Assembly: GCA_020057555.1 (NCBI GenBank)
Contig: JAGVFR010000028.1
Coordinates: 12,444 to 76,443, forward strand
Reading direction: 5' to 3'
Source of the DNA: a bacterium
GTDB taxonomy: Bacteria > Patescibacteriota > Patescibacteriia > UBA9934 > GWF2-40-263
DNA: 64,000 nucleotides
This document shows, one piece after another, positions 2,985 through 54,871 of the stretch. The notes beneath the pieces are model-generated. The model did not search any database. It saw only the letters and a program-made list of their open reading frames with translations, and was not told the DNA's origin. The translations under genes were made by a program, and so were the position numbers. Positions within the stretch are counted from its first letter, which is position 1, and the number at the start of each line of letters is the position of its first letter.

Positions 2985-3125
2985 AATAAAAAAACAGACA
3001 TCGATCTGCAGGCAAGAAATTTCATTTATGGGAAGGTCAAGTCCGGAGACCAGAACTTCCATAAATTGAAATCCCATGCTTGTCGTGCCTGCAGATCACT
3101 GCCTGTTTTGAAACTCCTTGAATTG
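2985..3125. repeat. ~130-nt imperfect palindrome with nested stems, in an intergenic region
   Basis: atctgcaggca at ~2998 and tgcctgcagat at ~3101 form a perfect 11-bp inverted repeat. Inside it, tttatgggaag and cttccataaa pair, and the arms align further with bulges. Confidence 0.6.
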
Positions 3126-4995: not shown

Positions 4996-7233
4996 ATGCA
5001 TCTCGAACGTCTTGAAATTCAAGGATTCAAAACCTTTGCCAAGAAGACAATTTTAACATTTCTTCCTCCAAAAGAAGGCCATTTTCCTGTTACAGCAATT
5101 GTTGGTCCAAATGGTTCAGGAAAATCAAACAGCGCTGACGCGATTCGTTGGGTTTTGGGAGAACAAAGTTTGAAACTTTTGCGCGGTAAACAATCAGACG
5201 ATGTAATTTTTTCTGGCGCAGAGGGAAAAGCTCGTGCTGGTTTTGCAGAGGTCACACTTCAACTCAACAATGAGGACAAATCAATGCCGATTGAATATGA
5301 AAATGTTGTAATCACACGTCGCCTATATCGCGATGGAACTTCAGAATATCTTCTCAACGAAAGTCATGCAAGACTTATTGATATTCAACTTCTTCTTGCG
5401 CAAGCAAATGTCGGTCAACGATCCTATTCAGTTATCGGGCAAGGAATGGTGGATCATATTTTGGTTTCAACACCGGAAGAACGTAAACAATTTTTTGATG
5501 ACGCAACTGGTGTAAAACAATTTCAGATCAAACGTCATGAAGCAATGTTGAAACTCAAGCACACTCTTGAAAATCTTACTGACGCTGAAATGGTTCTTCA
5601 AGAAATTGAACCACGTTTGCGTTCACTAAAGCGCCAAGCATCTCGTCTTGAAAAACGGGAAGAAGTCGAGACCCAACTTCACGCGCTTGAACAAACTTAC
5701 TATGGAAATCTTTGGTGGCAGATTGTGGATGATATGAACGAGCGCAAGCTCACATTTTCTGAAGTCAATAAAAAAATCAAAACAATAGAAAAAGAATTGG
5801 ACGATCTTGAGAAAAAAATGGTCGTTATTGAAAGATCTGAAACAACAGATGAGGGGCTTCGTGAGCTTCAAAAAAAATACCGCGAAATACAACATAAACG
5901 GGAACAGGCTCGTCACACACAATTTGAAACTGAAAAAGAAATTGAACTTGCAAAAATAAAAGTGCAGTCAAATTGGGCACCACTTCCGCTCATAAAAATC
6001 ATCGAAGGAATCGAGGAAATTAAAAAGAAGCTCACTCTCATGTCATCCCGAGCAAAGTCGAGGGATCTCAATAATTTTGATGAAGTTTTCAAAATTGCTG
6101 ATGAGGCTTTTATATTTTCAAACAAACTGGTTTCACAATTGCAAAGACCAAATGCAACTGACATGAAACCAGATCCAAAGCTTGTTGCAAAACTATCACT
6201 TCTAAAACAAGAAGAGGAGAAATTGAATAAAGAGCTTGTTCGAATTGAAAAAGAAATCGATTCACATGCACAAAAAGAAAAAGAAGCACGAACAGAACTT
6301 ATTGAAACACAACGATCTTTGCGCGCAAAACAACAAGATCTACATCTGCTTGAACAGGAGCGAAACCAATCTGAAATTGAACTCGCTCGTTTGGAAGAAC
6401 GACAGCAAGGTTTGATTCGCGAGATGGACGAGTTTATGAAAGAGAGAGCAGTGAATCTAAGAACAAATCTCCCCCCTACCAGAGGGGGGATAAAGGGGGG
6501 AGGGAGCGAGGAAACTTACCCTGAAATTCAGCGACTTCGTTATAAACTCGAATTGATCGGTGGAATCGATCCTGAAGTCATGAAAGAATATACAGAGATT
6601 CAGGAACGCTTTGATTTTCTAAATACGCACGTGACTGATCTTCGACAAGCAATGCGTTCAACAGAAAAAATCATCAAAGAACTGGACGAAAAAATCGAAC
6701 AACAATCCAAAAAATTATTTGGAGAGATTAACAAAAAATTCCAGCACTATTTCAAAATACTTTTTGGCGGAGGATCATGCGCACTTGTGAAAGTCAGCCA
6801 ATCTGTCATCCCAGAAGTGGAATTATCCAATGAGCCTGTCGAAGGGGTAATGAGTCAGATAAACCAGTCCGAAGGTGTTGATATTCAAGCAACTCCGCCT
6901 GGAAAACGTTTGAAGGCATTGAATCTCTTGTCTGGTGGAGAACGTGCACTTACTTCGATCGCGCTTCTTTCCGCAATCATGGATGTAAACCCTTCCCCGT
7001 TTGTTGTTTTGGATGAAGTTGATGCCGCGCTTGATGAAGCAAACACAATTCGATTTGCCGCAATCTTGGATGAGCTTTCACAAAAAAGTCAGTTCATAAT
7101 CATCACACATAATCGCGCGACAATGGAAAAAGCTGATGTACTGTATGGAGTAACAATGGGCGATGACGGAATTTCAAATTTGCTAAGTGTTCATTTGGAA
7201 GATATTGCAAAAAATGGTTCTGCGAGGAGATGA
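4996..7233 (+). CDS. smc: Chromosome segregation protein SMC, short form (~745 aa from the M at 4996; the ORF begins at 4942)
   Basis: N-terminal Walker A LERLEIQGFKTF...IVGPNGSGKSN. C-terminal signature LSGGERALTSIALLSAIMDVNPSPFVVLDEVDAALDE...IIITHN. The middle is coiled-coil-like with many E/K/R residues. Confidence 0.85.
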   Translation: MHLERLEIQGFKTFAKKTILTFLPPKEGHFPVTAIVGPNGSGKSNSADAIRWVLGEQSLKLLRGKQSDDVIFSGAEGKARAGFAEVTLQLNNEDKSMPIEYENVVITRRLYRDGTSEYLLNESHARLIDIQLLLAQANVGQRSYSVIGQGMVDHILVSTPEERKQFFDDATGVKQFQIKRHEAMLKLKHTLENLTDAEMVLQEIEPRLRSLKRQASRLEKREEVETQLHALEQTYYGNLWWQIVDDMNERKLTFSEVNKKIKTIEKELDDLEKKMVVIERSETTDEGLRELQKKYREIQHKREQARHTQFETEKEIELAKIKVQSNWAPLPLIKIIEGIEEIKKKLTLMSSRAKSRDLNNFDEVFKIADEAFIFSNKLVSQLQRPNATDMKPDPKLVAKLSLLKQEEEKLNKELVRIEKEIDSHAQKEKEARTELIETQRSLRAKQQDLHLLEQERNQSEIELARLEERQQGLIREMDEFMKERAVNLRTNLPPTRGGIKGGGSEETYPEIQRLRYKLELIGGIDPEVMKEYTEIQERFDFLNTHVTDLRQAMRSTEKIIKELDEKIEQQSKKLFGEINKKFQHYFKILFGGGSCALVKVSQSVIPEVELSNEPVEGVMSQINQSEGVDIQATPPGKRLKALNLLSGGERALTSIALLSAIMDVNPSPFVVLDEVDAALDEANTIRFAAILDELSQKSQFIIITHNRATMEKADVLYGVTMGDDGISNLLSVHLEDIAKNGSARR

Positions 7234-7257
7234 ATAATTACAACTCTTCAACTGCAG

Positions 7258-7307
7258 TAAATTATTGCCTGAACCTGTCGAAGGCCATAATTTACTTCTG
7301 TTCAGGT
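7258..7307 (+). repeat. Family-1 intergenic hairpin element (AATTATTGCCTGARCCTGTCGAAGGCC...YTCAGG)
   Basis: aattattgcctgaacctgtcgaaggccataatttacttctgttcagg. The stem CCTGAAC/GTTCAGG covaries with CCTGAGC/GCTCAGG in the copy at 44598. Confidence 0.6.
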
Positions 7308-9820: not shown

Positions 9821-11502
9821 CCACCGCTACTAGTTCAAGCACCCAAATCATCCAAACACTCTCCCGAGGGAGGCCTCGTGAGAGTTTTCATTACGCTTGA
9901 AGTTAGACGTCCATTACAATTGAATAACATCACATAATATGAACTTCTCTGTTGTGTGATTGTAATGTTTGTTCACGCAAAGAAGCCTTCTCAGTGGCCC
10001 TTTGCAATGACAGAATCCTTTGCTCCTTCTGGAGCATTGGATCTTTACTGAGAGTTTGATCCTGGCTCAGGACGAACGCTGGCGGCAGGTCTAAGGCATG
10101 CAAGTCGAACGGTTTGTTGTTGCCCGCAAGGGTGATGGCGAATAGTGGCAAACGGGAGCGTAACACATTGGTAACCTACCCCGAGCTCGTGAATAATTCA
10201 CCGAAAGGTGGACTAATACACGATATTGATGAGGGGACGCAAGTCATTCTCATTGAAAGCTTCGGCGGCACGGGAGGGGCCTATGCATTATCAGCTAGTT
10301 GGTGAGGTAATGGCTCACCAAGGCTATGACGATTACCGGGCGCGAGAGCGTGGCCCGGCTCACTGGGACTGAGACACGGCCCAGACACCTACGGGTGGCT
10401 GCAGTCAAGAATATTCCTCAATGCACGAAAGTGTGAAGGAGCTATGCCGCGTGCCAGACGAAGGCCTTCGGGTCGTAAATGGCTTTTATAAGGGACGAAC
10501 AAATGACGGTACCTTATGAATAAGGGGCTGCTAATCACGTGCCAGCAGCAGCGGTAATACGTGAGCCCCAAGCGTTGTCCGGATTTATTGGGCGTAAAGA
10601 GTCTGTAGGCTGTTCGATGTGTCATTCGTCAAATCTTCAGGCTCAACCTGGAGGCTGCGAGTGAGACTATCGGACTCGAGAACGGGAGAGGTGCATGGAA
10701 TTGCCGGTGTAGCGGTAAAATGCGTTAATATCGGCAAGAACACCAAAGGCGAAGGCAGTGCACTGGAACGTTTCTGACGCTGAGAGACGAAAGCGTGGGT
10801 AGCGAATGGGATTAGATACCCCAGTAGTCCACGCCGTAAACTATGAATGCTAGGTTTCGGGAGTATCGACCCTCTCGGAGCCGTTCAACCAAGTTAACAC
10901 GTTAAGCATTCCGCCTGGGAAGTACGATCGCAAGATTAAAACTCAAAGGAATAGACGGGGACCCGCACAAGCGGTGGAGCGTGCGGTTTAATTCGATGGT
11001 AAGCGAGGAACCTTACCTGGGCTTGAAAGACAGCTGCAATCCTGATGAAAGTCGGGACGCCTTCGAGGGTGCTGTCTAGGTGCTGCATGGTTGTCGTCAG
11101 CTCGTGGTGTGAACTGTTCCCTTAAGTGGGGTAACGAGCGCAACCCTTATCCCGCGTTATAAGTGTCACGGGAGACTGCCCTCGCAAGAGGGAGGAAGGT
11201 GAGGATGACGTCAAATCAGCATGGCCCTTATGTCCAGGGCGACACGCGCGCTACAATGGCCGGTACAATGGGCAGCCAAATCGTAAGATGGAGCTAATCC
11301 CACAAAGCCGGTCCCAGTTCAGATTGAGGTCTGCAACTCGACCTCATGAAGCCGGAATCGCTAGTAACGGCCGATCAGCCACGCGGCCGTGAATACGTTC
11401 TCGGGTCTTGTACTCACCGCCCGTCACGTCAAGAGAGTTGGCAACACCCGAACGTCGCCGTAGGGCGACGGAAGGTGGGGCTGATGATAAGGACGAAGTC
11501 GT

Positions 11503-12325
11503 AGAGTGAATCTCATTTGTTGCGACTCTCGACAGTAATGTCGATGTTAAAATCTGACTATATCGGTGAAGCCCTATTCCCTCTCTCGGGAAGGGTAATA
11601 CCGAGGGAAGCTTTTATACGATTATGGCAAACAGAAAAGAGTATCACCTAATGCGTCAGTCGGTGCATCTCACCGATTATCAACGTTCGATGCTTATCGG
11701 AACACTTCTTGGAGATGGAAGTCTCGTTGAGACAACATCAAAAAAGAACCTCCGATTAAAAATCGAGTATTGCGATGCTCAACGTGATTATGTCTTCTGG
11801 AAATATGAATGCCTTAAATCGTTTGTCTTAACTCCTCCGAAGTTCCAAATCAGGAACCGCTCGTGGATGTTCAAGACCATTAGTCATCCAGAATTCACGA
11901 TGCTCGGCGATCTCTTCTATGAGAAACGTCGAAAAATCGTACCAGTGGAAATTATGATCCTTCTCAAGGATCCGCTTTCCCTGGCAGTGTGGTTCATGGA
12001 CGATGGATCGAAAAATAGAAATGATGGGTTGATTCTAAATACGCAATGTTTCACTAATAATGAAACAAAGCGATTGAAGAACTGCCTTTCAACTAATTTT
12101 GGCATCGACCATGTTTCACTCCAAAAAGATAAATCTGGGTGGCGCTTGTATGTTCAATCGGCATCGTCCGGTCATATGACACAAGTCATGAAGCCTTACG
12201 TCCTGCCGTGTCTAACATACAAATTGATAAGCCCTGTAGAGACTACACGTCGGCCCCGTCGCCTAATTTCGTAGGCAGGCGGGTGAAGATATAGTCCATG
12301 CCCGGAGTAATCCGTGGAATCACAG
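11503..12325 (+). mobile_element. Group I-like intron at 16S position ~1506 carrying a LAGLIDADG homing endonuclease
   Basis: The 5' exon ends in U and the intron ends in G. A candidate internal guide sequence GCGAC at ~11522 pairs with the exon end GUCGU. An 823-nt insertion splits otherwise conserved 16S sequence, and the ORF fills most of it. Confidence 0.7.
11624..12274 (+). CDS. LAGLIDADG homing endonuclease (two motifs) within the 16S intron
   Basis: LIGTLLGDGSL and LAVWFMDDGSK. Confidence 0.85.
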   Translation: MANRKEYHLMRQSVHLTDYQRSMLIGTLLGDGSLVETTSKKNLRLKIEYCDAQRDYVFWKYECLKSFVLTPPKFQIRNRSWMFKTISHPEFTMLGDLFYEKRRKIVPVEIMILLKDPLSLAVWFMDDGSKNRNDGLILNTQCFTNNETKRLKNCLSTNFGIDHVSLQKDKSGWRLYVQSASSGHMTQVMKPYVLPCLTYKLISPVETTRRPRRLIS

Positions 12326-12649: not shown

Positions 12650-12655
12650 AAATAT

Positions 12656-12684
12656 ATTGCCTGAGCCTGTCGAAGGCTGCAGGG
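12656..12684 (+). repeat. Family-1 intergenic element, short form
   Basis: attgcctgagcctgtcgaaggctgcaggg. Confidence 0.5.
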
Positions 12685-25289: not shown

Positions 25290-26175
25290 TTGTTCCAGAG
25301 CAAAGTCCGCTTACAACATCCGGCATAACAATGTTCCAATATAGCGACTTTGAAAGTCCAACATCGTCGTCTGTGCCAACACTTAAACCTGTGTTTATCG
25401 GAGAAGATGTAAGCGCGTTTGATAACACGTCTCCAGCGCCAACATCAGACAGACTCCATTGAATATCTTCTAATGGAATACTTCCGTTAACACTGCACGT
25501 CATACTCGAGCCAGACACCTCAACGGACACTATGTCGTTTCCTTGCTGGAGAAGAGTAAATTCAACATTATTCTGCGGAGTTGTCGCTTGCGCTCTAGTC
25601 AGAGTTCCAAAATCTAATGTCTGTGGAATTAAAAGCGCGAGAATTGTATTGATCTCGGTTTCTTTTATTGTTGAATCAACACTTTGCGCGTCGTCTTTGG
25701 CAACAACCTCTGCATTCCAAACTTCTGATTCGTGCGTTCCGCCAGTCATTGTTGAGTCCGCAATATAACTCAACTCTATAAGACAAGAATAATTGAGCAC
25801 AGTGCCTGAATTTGGAGTTACACTGCAATAAACACGATAACAGTCATTTGGATCAGGTGTGCAATTCGCGCCAATATTAGAGCGGTAGAATTGTAATTCA
25901 ATGGTATTTATGTCCCCGTCTTCATAACTTGTCCCGACTCCATCCTCATCAAACACTCTTCCGTTTACATAAATGTTTTTTGTCGCGCCAACAGCAGGTG
26001 TAATAGGATTTGAGACAGAATAAAAATCTGAATAATTAAAAGCGTAATTATTTACAAAAACATCCTGCACAGCTGGCGGATGGTTTACTTGCGCGCGAAC
26101 AACAGCGAAAAAAAACATTACGGTAAAAATTACCGAAATCGCAACAAAAAATTGTTTAATAAAATGTTTGTTCAT
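25264..26175 (-). CDS. Secreted protein of unknown function, paralogue A (signal peptide, Cys-rich core). The start is likely the internal MNKHFIK.
   Basis: Paralogous to 26524..27501. Conserved blocks TSY.DGD.N.I...F.RS....NCT.D.NDCY...C..T...T...Y.C.L.L...ADST..GG and LIP.T...GTLTRAQ.TT..NN.E.T..Q.GND...VEVSG..M.C. Confidence 0.6.
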   Translation of the reverse strand: MNKHFIKQFFVAISVIFTVMFFFAVVRAQVNHPPAVQDVFVNNYAFNYSDFYSVSNPITPAVGATKNIYVNGRVFDEDGVGTSYEDGDINTIELQFYRSNIGANCTPDPNDCYRVYCSVTPNSGTVLNYSCLIELSYIADSTMTGGTHESEVWNAEVVAKDDAQSVDSTIKETEINTILALLIPQTLDFGTLTRAQATTPQNNVEFTLLQQGNDIVSVEVSGSSMTCSVNGSIPLEDIQWSLSDVGAGDVLSNALTSSPINTGLSVGTDDDVGLSKSLYWNIVMPDVVSGLCSGTSVISATPF

Positions 26176-33002: not shown

Positions 33003-33078
33003 CGGGACGTAGCTCAGTAGGTAGAGCGCCTGGTTTGGGACCAGGAGGCCGCAGGTTCGAGCCCTGTCGTCCCGACCA
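33003..33078 (+). tRNA. tRNA-Pro (TGG), CCA encoded
   Basis: CGGGACGTAGCTCAGTAGGTAGAGCGCCTGGTTTGGGACCAGGAGGCCGCAGGTTCGAGCCCTGTCGTCCCGACCA. Confidence 0.85.
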
Positions 33079-33163
33079 ACTGCTGATAGATTCAGATGTG
33101 ACAGGACGGCTGCGTCGCTCGAGAGAGACAAACTTTGTTTATCTCTCCGCTCGCTATCCTCGC

Positions 33164-33189
33164 CGTTCGAGCCCTGTCGTCCCGACCAA
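33164..33189 (+). repeat. Perfect 25-nt direct repeat of the tRNA-Pro 3' end (T-arm plus acceptor), about 110 nt downstream of the gene. att-site-like duplication.
   Basis: gttcgagccctgtcgtcccgaccaa occurs at 33054-33078 and again at 33164-33188. The 85-nt spacer contains an imperfect palindrome gagagagacaaactttgtttatctctc. Confidence 0.8.
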
Positions 33190-33208: not shown

Positions 33209-33282
33209 GCGGGTATCGTATAATGGTAATACTCCAGTTTTCCAAACTGGCACCAGGGGTTCGATTCCCCTTACCCGCTCCA
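33209..33282 (+). tRNA. tRNA-Gly (TCC), CCA encoded
   Basis: GCGGGTATCGTATAATGGTAATACTCCAGTTTTCCAAACTGGCACCAGGGGTTCGATTCCCCTTACCCGCTCCA. Confidence 0.85.
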
Positions 33283-41810: not shown

Positions 41811-42337
41811 AAAGAAAACCTTTGATTTAGAGGTCTTCCTTATTTATTTTGTTTGTGGGTTGAGAAAGCCATCAAAGAGTGGGTGAGTTCTTTAGATGGA
41901 AACTACCTTCTGTGCACCTGGTTGACCGTTCAGCCACAAACGAGGTGAAATATTTTGTCAAACTTTGCTCAAATTAGCTAAAAATGACGAAATGCAACGA
42001 GATAGTAACATGCGCTGGTACGAACGTCAAGTGCCATATGTGAACTTTCAGTGGATTGTCAAGAGTTAGGATTTTTTAGCTAAAAAAAGCAAAAAGACCG
42101 TTGTCAGGTCCTTTGTAAACTTGGGTTTATCCACAGCCTCCTTTTCACAAGGCTGCGAAGTGAAGCCACGAAAGAGTTACCGAGTCAAAACATCTGAGCA
42201 TGAGGAGAGAGATTTTGCCGCATTCCGTTAGGAACACAGCGATGCTCGCGGTTTTCATTCGGAAATATCGTACCCCACATCGCAGCCTTGCAAAAACAAG
42301 GCGTAATAACACTTAATATTATAGTGTTAATTTGGAA

Positions 42338-43639: not shown

Positions 43640-43884
43640 TTTTCTCCCCCTTCATCCTCGATTATCTCATCAAGGAATTTGTTACGCCAATGTTTACTCT
43701 TCTACAATAAAACCGCTCAGGGAGGTCGAGAATGTCACATAGTGATCTAGGCATGGCCGTAGATGTGTGTAACGTGACGAATCAACACGGTGCAAAAAAA
43801 GTTTTCACCTTGTCTGCATCGGAGATCGCGCCAGGGTGGGTTCTCGTCCTCCATAAGCGGTTTTAAAAGTTCACATTGAAAACA

Positions 43885-44448: not shown

Positions 44449-44597
44449 TGTCTCCTCCTTGGCTTTCACGCCTGATTGTAGATTTCTGCCCACACTTGCG
44501 GACAGTGTTCAATCCATATAAATGAACTGAACACTATCAGCATATTTATTGTGTCATTCTGAGGGAGTAATTCATTCGTGATCCTTCACGGAATTTA

Positions 44598-44665
44598 CCC
44601 TGAGCGGAGGCAATCATGGCCTTCGACAGGCTCAGGCAATAATTGCCGAAGTCGAAGGGTTCAGG
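44598..44665 (-). repeat. Family-1 intergenic element plus an adjacent partial GTCGAAGG hairpin
   Basis: The reverse complement is aattattgcctgagcctgtcgaaggccatgattgcctccgctcaggg. The stem is CCTGAGC/GCTCAGG. Confidence 0.6.
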
Positions 44666-44702
44666 ATGACAAGAAGGAAGAAAGTTGCTCTGGACGACAA
44701 CT

Positions 44703-44781
44703 GTTTGAACGGTTGTGCTGTGTCGAAGGGAACAGCGGCGATAGTCCGATGGCCCGGAGACATAGCACAACCGTTCAAACT
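44703..44781 (+). ncRNA. Family-2 structured RNA motif, copy A. A conserved 42-nt core lies inside a long hairpin with a covarying closing stem.
   Basis: gtttgaacggttgtgctgtGTCGAAGGGAACAGCGGCGATAGTCCGATGGCCCGGAGACATagcacaaccgttcaaac. Confidence 0.5.
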
Positions 44782-44823
44782 ATGATGAAATAATTTAACG
44801 AACAAAGATATCACAAAATGCCG

Positions 44824-44852
44824 ATTTTGTCAAGAACGCTTCTGTGCTAAAA
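44824..44852 (+). promoter_or_regulatory. Putative ftsK promoter (TTGTCA, spacer, TGcTAAAAT)
   Basis: ttgtcaagaacgcttctgtgctaaaatg. Confidence 0.4.
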
Positions 44853-44859
44853 TGTCTCC

Positions 44860-47184
44860 ATGTCACGCAGACGCAAACGTACGTATAAACGAGCCGAAGA
44901 AGAGAGCAAGGGCTCCATCCTGGGAATTGAGCTCAATCAAGAAACAAAACGCGGCATTATTGTCGTGTTGCTTTTTGCAGTTGCGGCGCTAATGTTCCTG
45001 TCGTTTTTCCAAATTGCAGGAAGTCTTGGAACAATTATAAATTCTGGTCTTTCTCAATTTTTTGGCTTTGACCGCTTTCTTGTCCCACTTGTTTTAATTA
45101 TGATAGGAGCAACACTTGCATATCCGGAGCGTGGAACTTTTTCAACTTGGAATTTACTTGGGTTGTTTTTCTTTTTCTTGTCATTCAATTCAATACTAAA
45201 TCTTTTACTTGTTAATAAGCCTGAACCGTTCACACAAAATCTTTCTTCTGCTGGTGGATATCTTGGTCAATTCTTGGGTTTACTTTTGCCAACTTTCGTT
45301 GGTTATTGGGGAGCGATCGTAATTGCGATTGCTCTACTTTTTATTTCAATAATGCTTGCCTTTAACACGTCGCTTCATAAGCTTGGCCCAGCGCAAACTC
45401 ATTTGTCAGGTTGGATTGGGAGAATGTTTAGTAGAAAAATCGGAGAGGTTGCAGAAGTTGAAGAGGCAGAATATGACGAAAAGGTTGGAGAAGTTGAAGA
45501 CGAAGAAGAAGTCGAAGAAGAAAATCACGAATTTCATGCAAAACCTGTTGAAGTAACAAAACAACTTGAAACTCTCCTTGCTACAAAACAACGACGTCAA
45601 ATTAACATTCCACTTACTTTGCTTGATCGTTCAACATCAAAAGCTCAATCAGGTGACATTGAACGCAACAAAGAAATTATTGAAAAGACATTTCATGAAT
45701 TTGGAATCGACGTCGAAATGGGAAACATTTCTGTTGGCCCAACAGTCACGCAATATACACTTCGTCCAGCGCAAGGAATCAAGCTCGCACGAATTGTGAG
45801 TTTGCAAAATGACCTTGCGCTTGCTCTTGCCGCGCACCCAATCCGTATGGAAGCTCCAATTCCTGGAAAATCCCTGGTTGGTATTGAAGTTCCAAATACA
45901 AAAGTTGCGACAGTTACGCTACGAGATGTTATTGAATCAAAACCATATCGTGAATGGAAAGGGGCTCTTGCAATTCCACTTGGAAAAGACGTGTCTGGCG
46001 GAACTTGCATGATCTCACTTGATAAAATGCCTCATCTCCTTGTTGCCGGAGCAACTGGTTCTGGAAAAAGTGTATGTCTAAATGCAATTATTTTATCACT
46101 CATTTATCAATACGGTCCTGATGATTTGAAATTCATCTTGGTTGATCCAAAACGTGTTGAACTAACAGCGTATGCTGGAATTCCACACTTACTTGTTCCT
46201 CCAATTGTTGGAGTTGATGACACAGTAAACGCGCTTAAATGGACTGTGAGAGAAATGGAACGACGTTTAGACATGCTATCAAAACATGGAGCGCGAAACA
46301 TTGATGATTACAATGCTAAGGTCGAAGAACGCATGCCAAAAATTGTAATTTTGATTGATGAACTCGCAGATCTTATGTCAGCAAGTGGGCGAGAAGTTGA
46401 AGCAACGATTGTCCGTATTGCTCAAATGGCGCGCGCTGTTGGAATTCATCTTGTACTTGCAACTCAACGTCCGAGTGTTGATGTTATAACGGGGCTTATT
46501 AAGGCCAACATCCCTGGACGTATTGCCTTCGCAGTTGCCTCTCAAACCGATTCACGCACAATTCTCGATCAATCTGGTGCAGAAAAACTTCTTGGTCGTG
46601 GTGACATGCTTTTCACATGCGCAGAAATATCAAAACCAAAACGAATTCAGGGCGCGTTTGTTTCTTCTGATGAAGTTGAGCGAATTGTTTCGTTCCTTCG
46701 TAAAAAAGGAGAACCTGATTACAATTTGGCAATCACTGAAATCACAAAAGCCGGAACAGTTTTTGATAATCCGGAAGATAGCGATCCAATGCTTGAGGAA
46801 TGTGTCCGAGTTGTTCTACAGTCCGGGAAAGCTTCGACGTCTTTACTGCAACGACGACTTCGCATTGGATATTCACGGGCCGCTAGAATAATGGATCTAC
46901 TTGAACAAGGCGGAGTTATTGGTCCACCTGATGGTTCAAGACCGCGCGAAGTGTTGATTGATGAATGGCCACCTGGAGGAAATATAAAAGAGGGAATGCC
47001 AATTGCGCAAGATGATTATGAAGAGGCTTGGGGAAAAGAAACTAGAGAAGCTGAAGAGGCAGAAGAAGTTGTAGCGGTAGGCTTTGGCATTCCAGAAGCT
47101 GAAGAAGCTGCAGAAGATCAAGAAGTGGAAAAAGATGAGAAGGAAAACTGGGAAGATAAGATCGATGACGAATGGATAAAATAA
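44860..47184 (+). CDS. ftsK: DNA translocase FtsK/SpoIIIE
   Basis: 774 aa. N-terminal TM helices, Walker A GATGSGKS, a C-terminal gamma-like domain and an acidic tail. Confidence 0.9.
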   Translation: MSRRRKRTYKRAEEESKGSILGIELNQETKRGIIVVLLFAVAALMFLSFFQIAGSLGTIINSGLSQFFGFDRFLVPLVLIMIGATLAYPERGTFSTWNLLGLFFFFLSFNSILNLLLVNKPEPFTQNLSSAGGYLGQFLGLLLPTFVGYWGAIVIAIALLFISIMLAFNTSLHKLGPAQTHLSGWIGRMFSRKIGEVAEVEEAEYDEKVGEVEDEEEVEEENHEFHAKPVEVTKQLETLLATKQRRQINIPLTLLDRSTSKAQSGDIERNKEIIEKTFHEFGIDVEMGNISVGPTVTQYTLRPAQGIKLARIVSLQNDLALALAAHPIRMEAPIPGKSLVGIEVPNTKVATVTLRDVIESKPYREWKGALAIPLGKDVSGGTCMISLDKMPHLLVAGATGSGKSVCLNAIILSLIYQYGPDDLKFILVDPKRVELTAYAGIPHLLVPPIVGVDDTVNALKWTVREMERRLDMLSKHGARNIDDYNAKVEERMPKIVILIDELADLMSASGREVEATIVRIAQMARAVGIHLVLATQRPSVDVITGLIKANIPGRIAFAVASQTDSRTILDQSGAEKLLGRGDMLFTCAEISKPKRIQGAFVSSDEVERIVSFLRKKGEPDYNLAITEITKAGTVFDNPEDSDPMLEECVRVVLQSGKASTSLLQRRLRIGYSRAARIMDLLEQGGVIGPPDGSRPREVLIDEWPPGGNIKEGMPIAQDDYEEAWGKETREAEEAEEVVAVGFGIPEAEEAAEDQEVEKDEKENWEDKIDDEWIK

Positions 47185-49135: not shown

Positions 49136-49157
49136 AAAAGCCGTTAGCCTCTAGCCT

Positions 49158-49182
49158 TTAGCATTAAAAATGCTTTTTTCCT
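49158..49182 (+). terminator. recA intrinsic terminator
   Basis: agcattaaaaatgcttttttcc. Confidence 0.65.
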
Positions 49183-49201
49183 AACGGCTAACAGCTAATG
49201 G

Positions 49202-54652: not shown

Positions 54653-54725
54653 AACTGTCTCTTGTGTATCTTATGTAGTTAACTGATTAGCTTGAGGCTG
54701 AAGAGGAAGGTTTTTAAGATTGTAA

Positions 54726-54800
54726 GGAGCAGTTTGCATCATGTCGCAGGGAACAACGGCGAGGAGTCCGTTGGCCCGGAGACATGGTGCAAACTGCTCC
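54726..54800 (+). ncRNA. Family-2 structured RNA motif, copy B
   Basis: ggagcagtttgcatcatGTCGCAGGGAACAACGGCGAGGAGTCCGTTGGCCCGGAGACATggtgcaaactgctcc. Confidence 0.5.
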
Positions 54801-54871
54801 GACACTTGTCTTCCTAAACGACTTCGGCGGCGGTCAAGAACAGAGGAACCGAACGATCTGTCAATTCATGT

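Follow-up and report, generated by a model that had tools for sequence, protein, structure and literature searches.

A conserved hairpin apex on freely varying stems: a probable palindromic element family of Uhrbacteria and Parcubacteria

The 64-kb window analyzed here (the whole stretch of 64,000 nucleotides taken from contig JAGVFR010000028.1) carries two long hairpins with a common core, copy A in the spacer upstream of ftsK and copy B between ychF and a J-domain gene. Reading of the sequence bears out the positions and the plus-strand orientation that a first-pass annotation had given for both, as well as its three gene calls; that annotation took the pair for a structured RNA of the small RNA (sRNA), ribozyme or riboswitch-like kind. 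We argue instead that the two hairpins probably belong to a small family of non-coding, interspersed palindromic elements of Uhrbacteria and Parcubacteria, lineages of the Candidate Phyla Radiation (CPR), in which a near-invariant apex is carried on a stem whose sequence is free to vary provided that it pairs.

Two hairpins and the family they represent

Copy A occupies positions 44703-44780 of the plus strand (78 nt; sequence, RNA fold and a covariance-model match of 87.9 bits), with base 44781 lying outside its stem. The 22-nt 5' arm of its outer stem, P1 (44703-44724), consists of a variable part followed by a conserved ..TGTC and pairs with the 22-nt 3' arm (44759-44780) through 21 Watson-Crick pairs and one G.U pair. 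Between the arms lies the conserved core at 44725-44758 (pattern match at 44728-44761), which reads GAA (44725-44727), GGG (44728-44730), AA (44731-44732) and CAGCGG (44733-44738), then the apical loop CGATAGT (44739-44745), CCGATG (44746-44751), G (44752), CCC (44753-44755) and GGA (44756-44758), and whose helices P2 and P3 are backed by compensatory variants in other copies. Copy B, on the same strand at 54726-54800 (75 nt; sequence, RNA fold and a match of 91.4 bits), has 20-nt arms at 54726-54745 and 54781-54800 that form 19 Watson-Crick pairs and one U.G pair around a core at 54746-54780 (pattern match at 54749-54783), running GCA, GGG, AA, CAACGG, the apical loop CGAGGAGT, CCGTTG, G, CCC and GGA.

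Several details of the original description have to be amended. The two copies do share a core, of about 41 nt where 42 had been given; however, the consensus printed for it is out of register for copy A, because the apical loop measures 7 nt in copy A and 8 nt in copy B. With one wobble pair in each, the stems are not perfectly Watson-Crick, and their arms, said to be entirely different, match at about 58% in our reading of an alignment, all differences being transitions that are compensated in the opposite arm.

Folded as RNA, copy A reaches -51.0 kcal/mol (z = -9.5) and copy B -52.4 kcal/mol (z = -10.1), and for neither was an equally stable structure found among 200 shuffles (0/200 each). 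The core pattern has no match in 100 shuffles of the window, and a covariance-model search of the full 64 kb returns copies A and B only. Beyond a 28-nt stretch that begins in the core the flanks of the two copies have nothing in common, and therefore the pair did not arise by segmental duplication, a possibility raised together with the original call. As had been supposed, no known RNA family matches: Rfam 15 yields only 16S rRNA and tRNAs over the whole window at gathering thresholds, and only generic long-hairpin microRNA models (22-26 bits against cut-offs of 79-88) in the region 44600-44900 at E <= 10, where the hammerhead, twister, pistol, hatchet, HDV and hairpin ribozyme models find no match either; one of the larger composites described below, that of locus L040, gives nothing at E <= 1.

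A pattern scan of species-representative genomes produced 27 matches in 26 stretches of five metagenome-assembled genomes (MAGs), assigned to three Candidatus Uhrbacteria, one Parcubacteria and one contig labelled Gammaproteobacteria, the last label being unconfirmed. A covariance model built from the first 29 copies then recognized 34 full-length copies in the window and these loci, and a looser pattern brought in 87 stretches of groundwater metagenomes with 98 plus 9 further model matches. Together the searches give about 140 further copies, and we put the size of the family at 130 or more. (L-numbers below denote sampled stretches that contain copies or their relatives; P-numbers denote proteins.) The copies are dispersed singly, about 2-100 kb apart. 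Contigs L111, L112 and L038 are 87-91% identical to the window, which therefore stems from an Uhrbacteria-like CPR bacterium. A phage origin was rejected: the viral contigs searched contained no match. Copy B has 13 other flank-matched copies, the largest flank group, which mixes orthologous with dispersed composite copies; L012 also has a copy next to ychF.

Structure, covariation and the strand under constraint

The unit of the family is the whole stem-loop of about 71-84 nt. Its outer stem spans 18-23 bp, and its purine-rich apex is built from a 3x3 internal loop GNA/GGA, the helix GGG/CCC (P2), an AA bulge opposite G, the helix CARCGG/CCGYUG (P3) and the apical loop CGA(N)NAGU. Two subtypes of the core can be told apart, one with the 7-nt loop CGACAGU and a G.A or A.A mismatch in P3, the other with the 8-nt loop CGARGAGU and a Watson-Crick pair at the position of that mismatch.

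That structure is kept while sequence varies, as the first-pass annotation had held from two copies, is evident across 89 distinct aligned sequences: 24 of 29 pairs change on both sides (20/20 in the outer stem and 4/9 in the core), and paired cells amount to 95.8%, as against 76.5% in shuffles and at most 50% with slid partners. This alignment was fitted to the covariance model and so favors structure. Independently of the model, however, the P2 helix occurs as GGG/CCC (78), GUG/CAC (9) and AGG/CCU (7), the fourth pair of P3 occurs as C-G, G-C, U-A and A-U, and GUC/GAC is replaced elsewhere in the core helices by GUU/AAC or GCC/GGC. At alignment column 14, C-G is found 50 times, U.G 22 times and U-A 10 times. 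Covariation is seen in all three helices.

The constraint has a strand. Among 108 distinct copies, 152 G.U pairs stand against 43 A.C pairs when the core is read in its sense orientation, and this strand is the more stable of the two in 103/108 copies with RNA parameters and in 108/108 with DNA parameters. The wobble bias is the same whether copies lie sense (30:7) or antisense (26:9) to the neighboring genes or between convergent ones (24:4), so that which strand is constrained depends on the element and not on the local transcript. By our reasoning, two mutational explanations fail on this point. First, transcription-linked deamination predicts the opposite sign in antisense copies, whereas the observed bias has the same sign in both contexts. 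Second, template switching from arm to arm could restore complementarity but would not create a one-sided excess of wobble pairs.

Time does not appear to erode these features. Stems that have diverged further from the family consensus have no more unpaired positions than the others (rho = -0.03), and between orthologous copies the core is 95.7% identical, as compared with 81-90% for the arms and 88-90% for the flanks, which are partly coding. Pairing and apex are maintained in place, on a strand other than that of the local mRNA; the copies are not simply decaying junk, and are either substrates of some factor or used by the host.

Orientation with respect to replication is less orderly. The core-sense strand relates to GC skew as 60:44 over all copies (p = 0.14); by our own tally it is the C-rich strand in 17:4 cases in the JACPHT and JACQXU MAGs taken together, but in 2:7 in JACRJU. 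With a pooled value short of significance and MAGs that contradict each other, we rejected a tie between orientation and replication strand. On long MAG contigs (JACPHT010000008.1, JACRJU010000013.1 and others) the copies tend to share one strand, 5/5 and 4/4 in the same tally.

Gene context, turnover and copies within genes

Sixty-six copies are cleanly placed between genes: 25 are antisense to both neighbors (--), 20 sense to both (++), 17 convergent (+-) and 4 divergent (-+). With 25 antisense and 20 sense cases, orientation is random relative to genes. As many as 62 of the 66 abut the 3' end of at least one gene, and many fill the whole spacer, with less than 20 nt on either side and the stop codon touched; copy A is flanked by divergent genes. 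Copies at gene 3' ends and away from divergent promoter regions are where insertions under purifying selection would be expected to persist. The neighbors are functionally unrelated (FtsK, YchF, a DnaJ-domain protein, subtilases, an epimerase, a class II aminoacyl-tRNA synthetase, MreB, ClpB, a penicillin-binding protein and glycosyltransferases), and no recurrent neighbor gene or partner protein emerged among the approximately 840 open reading frames (ORFs) in the 0.88 Mb of sampled loci.

Nor do the copies bring transcription signals of their own. Hexamers resembling a -10 element (TANNNT) are not enriched at any offset, into or out of the hairpin, and an own promoter at a fixed distance was rejected on this ground. 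A promoter scan reports GAGACA-18-TATGAT from copy A towards ftsK and GCGACA-17-TACAAT on the minus strand of copy B; outward promoters of this design, with GAGACA or TCGACA as the -35 element and the arm as spacer, were rejected because a -10-like hexamer follows at 16-18 nt in only 9 and 13 of 107 copies, which is background. A run of T follows the hairpin in 13/108 copies and in 19/108 on the opposite strand, and a terminator scan of the regions of both window copies found no terminator-like site. An independent sRNA gene thus finds no support in promoters and terminators (no fixed -10, few T-runs, copies that fill short spacers), and neither does a riboswitch or other cis-regulatory leader in view of the position of copies at gene 3' ends, their mixed orientation and the absence of any shared gene function.

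Presence and absence vary between close relatives. L111, 88% identical to the window, has an ftsK upstream region without copy A and without the "family 1" repeat that adjoins it (see below), while the window spacer 49136-49201, empty and made of ordinary terminator-like sequence, holds a copy in L111 and L112. Two filled/empty pairs are clean. The copy at L042:4058-4131, compared with the empty L116 and L117, sits at a stop codon as 86 nt added seamlessly between ..GAATA and ACACAA.., with a target-site duplication of at most 1 nt against L116; for L004:6015-6089 the empty allele of L048 retains neither arm. It follows that the inserted unit is the whole hairpin including its arms. Both resolved insertion sites follow ..AATA. 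A comparison of the L042 tgt region with L116 had suggested that stems might be made from the target by inverted duplication, but the two clean empty sites lack both arms, and a deletion between CATGTC direct repeats explains that case better. Imprecise deletions are seen in L030 and L067.

At 4 of about 19 orthologous loci (L111/L112, L004/L048, L019/L031 and L037/L106) the core is inverted in place, with conserved flanks and homologous arms; the inverted segment measures only some 35 nt. Other copies are fragmentary. An orphan 13-nt piece of core, CTGGCCCGGAGAC, lies at L023:2118-2130 (minus strand), 4 nt 5' of a complete copy; it is adjoined by the 5' arm and not the 3' arm, and resembles a template-switch scar. 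"Coreless" long hairpins with a ..CTGTC/GACAG.. apex occur at L018:604-654 (minus strand) and L116:~2000-2040, the arms of the latter differing by transitions only and giving G.U pairs on the strand antisense to tgt. Both hairpins probably arose by deletion.

Copies also reside in frame within genes. The core, translated by hand, has no stop codon in any of the six frames. In Tgt (tRNA-guanine transglycosylase) a copy occupies the same surface loop in five genomes; it runs antisense to the gene, whose translation passes through it as ..LSPGHRTVAAVPSD... The arms of the five orthologues are unrelated in sequence and yet form stems of some 17-20 bp, in which the strand antisense to the mRNA has 8 G.U and 1 A.C pairs. 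Many of the 120 best Tgt homologues (P0001-P0120) have a loop of about 10 aa without insert; antisense-frame SPGHRTVAAVPSD-type peptides occur in 14 of the 120 and sense-frame SEGTAATVRWPGD-type peptides in about 7, and some of the remaining loops hold what deletions have left or peptides characteristic of other families of repeats. Despite 92% identity to P0001, P0002 lacks the insert. The loop, between ..ERSLRWAKRC and LFGIVQGG, is a hotspot for varied repeat-derived peptides in Patescibacteria: other types are LPLSKGELEGV, PELVEG..STSSG, IASSP..APRNDE and LRFALDDR, and its length ranges from about 9 to 73 aa. Further in-frame hosts are an O-antigen ligase (Wzy_C) in L036, an HD-domain protein in L065 and QueA in L018, the last assigned by our own reading of the sequence and not by Pfam. 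The element hence adds peptides to two core enzymes of queuosine tRNA modification, Tgt and QueA.

The family is nested with other small palindromes. About a third of the copies, copy B included, form the center of a palindromic repeat of about 190-230 nt, here called the carrier, whose covarying outer arms of 22 bp read AGATCGTTCGGATCCTCTGTTC / GAACAGAGGATCCGAACGATCT. Most carrier copies have another center (L064 at 11337-11567, L083, L071, L067 and L094, as opposed to L040:400-664 with the hairpin), and the hairpin was therefore inserted into the carrier. Next to copy B only the right half of the carrier is left, at 54801-54859 of the plus strand as aligned with complete composites of about 230 nt in L040, L047, L090 and others, with its outer arm GAACAGAGGAACCGAACGATCT at 54838-54859 (plus strand); the left arm is deleted in the window genome (..AAGAT|TGTAA.. 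at about 54716-54725). Conversely, a GC-rich mini-palindrome of 36-40 nt, GGCCGTCGCCGGCCGAAGCCGGCTATGGCCGGCGTAGGCC, sits between CCC and GGA of the core in several copies (L044:2196-2309, L103:12673-12786, L064:6734-6848, L033:6081-6215 and L112:4418-4538), where it is inherited and turns the internal loop into a three-way junction, possibly flanked by a CCGG duplication. Another GC-rich palindrome, GGGGTGCCCACACCCCGCGG..GCGGGGTCAAGGGACCCCGCC, is found in both orientations in the conserved leader beside the J-domain gene of some relatives (L044:~2000-2060, L069:~6470-6525, L067, L027 and L029).

Other repeats of the window deserve record. The "family 1" palindromic repeat (..TGTCATTCTGAGG..GCCTTCGACAGGCTCAGGCAATAATTGCCGAAGTCGAAGGGTTCAGGATGACA) lies directly 5' of copy A at 44552-44680 and recurs at 7250-7302, 12655-12677 and 6824-6846; hairpin copies of L003 (two cases) and L012 likewise have its ..CAGGATGACA end on their 5' side, at a distance of 30-55 nt. 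Four further long inverted repeats, at 43708-43865, 42136-42302, 2991-3109 and 25964-26127, have arms of 23-27 nt and centers of 65-118 nt; they may represent additional palindromic element families, and a homologue of the first lies in the region upstream of ftsK of L111. An exact 25-nt direct repeat (33055-33079 and 33165-33189) comprises the 3' end of the tRNA gene at 33003-33075 and a second copy 110 nt downstream, just ahead of the tRNA gene at 33209-33279, and could be a remnant of integration at a tRNA gene. Finally, a 48-nt segment of the 3' part of ftsK is shared, at 88% identity, with another locus (2856-2903 and 47056-47103); it holds a small palindrome, GAAGGCTTTGGCCTTC, inside acidic-repeat coding sequence and may be another in-frame repeat.

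Interpretation and alternatives

Among known systems, two come close. Rickettsia palindromic elements (RPEs) insert in frame within unrelated housekeeping genes and thereby add a peptide (review PMC10969869). The hairpin family behaves in the same way, as a many-copy palindrome that is found both between genes and in frame within unrelated ORFs, and like the RPEs it consists of short interspersed repeats in a lineage with reduced genomes. However, RPEs measure about 100-150 bp and are confined to Rickettsia, whereas the CPR element measures about 75 nt and alone has the invariant apex on a free stem, so the likeness we claim is one of behavior and not of sequence. We know of no transposase for either. 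The second relative is the repetitive extragenic palindromic (REP) sequence and its REPIN arrangement, mobilized with REP-associated tyrosine transposases (RAYTs): these, too, are extragenic hairpin repeats, about 70-110 nt long, with compensatory changes and with copy numbers from tens into the hundreds. For REP and REPIN sequences a fold as single-stranded DNA (ssDNA) or RNA is predicted, compensatory hairpin changes and vertical persistence are described, and a single-strand intermediate related to IS200/IS605 has been proposed (PMC3116915). In contrast to the CPR hairpin, with its variable ends and conserved center, REPINs have conserved ends (the REP sequences) and a variable paired spacer, and the 5' GTAG-type motif of REPs is absent from the CPR hairpin. 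No RAYT gene was found in the window and the 0.88 Mb of loci by ORF clustering, by Pfam on recurrent clusters or by tblastn, the last a weak search.

Other systems share single features. Transposable elements of the miniature inverted-repeat type (MITEs; for example Correia, ERIC, BOX and RUP) are likewise non-coding, non-autonomous, dispersed within and between genes and sometimes nested, but they are defined by conserved terminal inverted repeats and target-site duplications; a MITE was rejected because the CPR hairpin has arms without conservation and, in its one clean insertion, no more than 1 nt of duplication. In plastid non-coding DNA, short spacers between inverted repeats of about 20 bp flip recurrently between close relatives. 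Such hairpin-loop inversions resemble the flips with flanks in place at the four orthologous loci and in the Tgt loop, but are passive events in unique hairpins, with no repeat family and no conserved loop. Integron attC sites and the end hairpins of IS200/IS605 act as folded ssDNA on one strand, with structure counting for more than stem sequence, and attC sites also abut ORF 3' ends; unlike the CPR hairpin, which varies at its base, attC sites have conserved boxes at the base of the stem, a variable apex and an arrangement in arrays next to intI, and IS200/IS605 hairpins flank a tnpA/tnpB cargo, which is not seen here. TIGR-Tas arrays, CRISPR and attC were dismissed because the copies are solitary. 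An inverton, a switch inverted by a recombinase, was considered as well: both orientations occur in related genomes, the flipped segment of about 35 nt has no detected promoter, and no invertase was found in the sampled loci. Given its inverted architecture, the lack of terminal repeats and (in one case) of target duplication, and the absence of a transposase from the 0.88 Mb sampled, the hairpin family is neither an RPE nor a REP/REPIN member; it is closest to RPEs in behavior and to REP/REPIN-RAYT in hairpin logic.

We therefore put a probability of roughly 0.6 on the family being a non-autonomous, mobile palindromic element of an RPE/REPIN-like kind and not a dedicated regulatory RNA gene. 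The class proposed at the outset (sRNA, ribozyme or riboswitch-like) sits poorly with random orientation, missing promoters and terminators, unrelated neighbors, presence/absence differences, flips and in-frame copies. In the mechanism we envisage, the conserved apex would be the recognition or processing site of a trans-acting enzyme that acts on one folded strand, and the sole task of the stem would be to present that apex. The strand acted on would most likely be ssDNA, as in the "peel and paste" of IS200/IS605 and REP-RAYT, though an RNA form is possible; ssDNA is the more economical guess because the constraint ignores the direction of transcription and insertion is seamless. In-place inversions would then result from recombination or template switching between the two arms.

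Several observations weigh against a mobile element of this kind. No transposase, recombinase or reverse transcriptase was seen near any copy among the ~840 sampled ORFs; none appeared in Pfam scans, which were made only on recurrent ORF clusters of these loci, and a tblastn search of window and sampled loci with an IS200 TnpA sequence, a weak test, found nothing. In REP/REPIN and MITEs it is the ends that are conserved and the center that is free, the opposite of the layout found here. Even old copies passed on by vertical inheritance keep core and pairing, where a purely selfish repeat should decay, and this retention fits a host function equally well. The lack of target-site duplication rests on one clean case, the pooled GC-skew data give no support to a strict lagging-strand ssDNA mechanism, and the present data do not separate ssDNA from RNA.

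The foremost alternative, to which we assign a clearly minor share of the probability, is a structured RNA module that benefits the host, is transcribed in passing or from weak local promoters, has spread by duplication and is kept by selection locus by locus. It would act, on this equally tentative account, after excision or in a complex with a protein by which the purine-rich apex is read on a duplex of about 20 bp. It might serve to signal processing or stability, to soak up a protein as a sponge, or as substrate for an RNA-modifying enzyme. Covariation through G.U intermediates, as at column 14, is of the textbook RNA type, G.U exceeds A.C 3.5-fold, and in our reading the GNA/GNA 3x3 loop could form sheared G.A pairs while GA(N)NA resembles a GNRA loop closed on a C-G pair. 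At orthologous loci, moreover, the surroundings of the core change about 2.5 times as fast as the core itself, pairing is unaffected by how far a stem has diverged, and the ychF-adjacent copy is retained in genomes of only about 70% nucleotide identity. But the only transcripts expected to cross them run antisense to roughly half of the copies, which show the same strand bias all the same; in the intragenic Tgt copies the constraint lies on the strand antisense to the mRNA, and promoter and terminator signals are lacking; presence and orientation differ between close relatives without visible consequence, and a foreign hairpin of 40 nt inside the core is tolerated and inherited.

Distinctly improbable, in our estimate, is a host DNA signal that is read as a folded single strand, such as a signal for priming or replication restart, recombination or segregation, distributed along the chromosome. 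Such a signal would account for a strand-specific constraint that is independent of transcription direction, for the greater stability of the core-sense strand in every one of the 108 copies when DNA parameters are used, and for the spread of copies along contigs, often on one strand (4/4 and 5/5). However, there is no overall relation to GC skew and MAGs show opposite trends, flips and presence/absence are hard to square with a positional chromosomal signal, and the copies in coding regions have the look of insertions made where opportunity offered.

An intrinsic terminator or a 3'-end stabilizer of mRNA, as many REP elements are, we deem somewhat less probable still. The abutment of 62/66 copies on gene 3' ends, the 17 convergent as against 4 divergent placements and the great stability of the hairpins in either orientation all speak for it. 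T-runs in 13/108 copies only (19/108 on the opposite strand), no terminator at the window copies, the position of copy A between divergent genes and the presence of copies inside ORFs speak against, and neither the invariant 35-nt apex nor a single-strand wobble bias that holds in both gene contexts would be explained.

A self-cleaving ribozyme or riboswitch-like ligand sensor is very improbable: a conserved, internally looped core about 35 nt long, whose helices covary and which matches nothing in Rfam, might conceivably denote a new class, but there is no relation to gene class or 5' UTRs, orientation is random, the predicted fold is a simple unbranched hairpin with no pseudoknot or junction, a 40-nt insertion in the internal loop is tolerated and no known ribozyme model matched at E <= 10.

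We would go one step further only tentatively, and with no great expectation of being right, in suggesting that the hairpin is the cis element of an undescribed CPR system, in which a trans-acting protein reads the invariant apex on any stem of about 20 bp and on one strand only. If this were true, it would represent a new form of single-strand hairpin transposition with recognition directed to the apex and not to the ends or, alternatively, a functional module of RNA or ssDNA in wide use, which each copy has to preserve, and inversion of the core could serve as an on/off toggle for a crossing transcript.

In practical terms, the element will give rise to false calls of "novel structured RNA" in covariation screens and can lead to spurious ORF extensions or fusions in the annotation of MAGs, and it offers a handy marker of strain-level variation in groundwater Uhrbacteria. 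More broadly, the genomes of CPR/Patescibacteria (about 1 Mb) are usually treated as repeat-poor, whereas the data suggest several nested families of mini-palindromes, one of which reshapes intergenic spacers and abuts stop codons. With an apex and a pairing constrained over the long term on one strand, and with orientation and presence that change quickly, the hairpin family makes an unusually clean case, and this combination of constraint and turnover points to a trans-acting partner enzyme with a recognition logic opposite to that of REP/REPIN sequences and MITEs.

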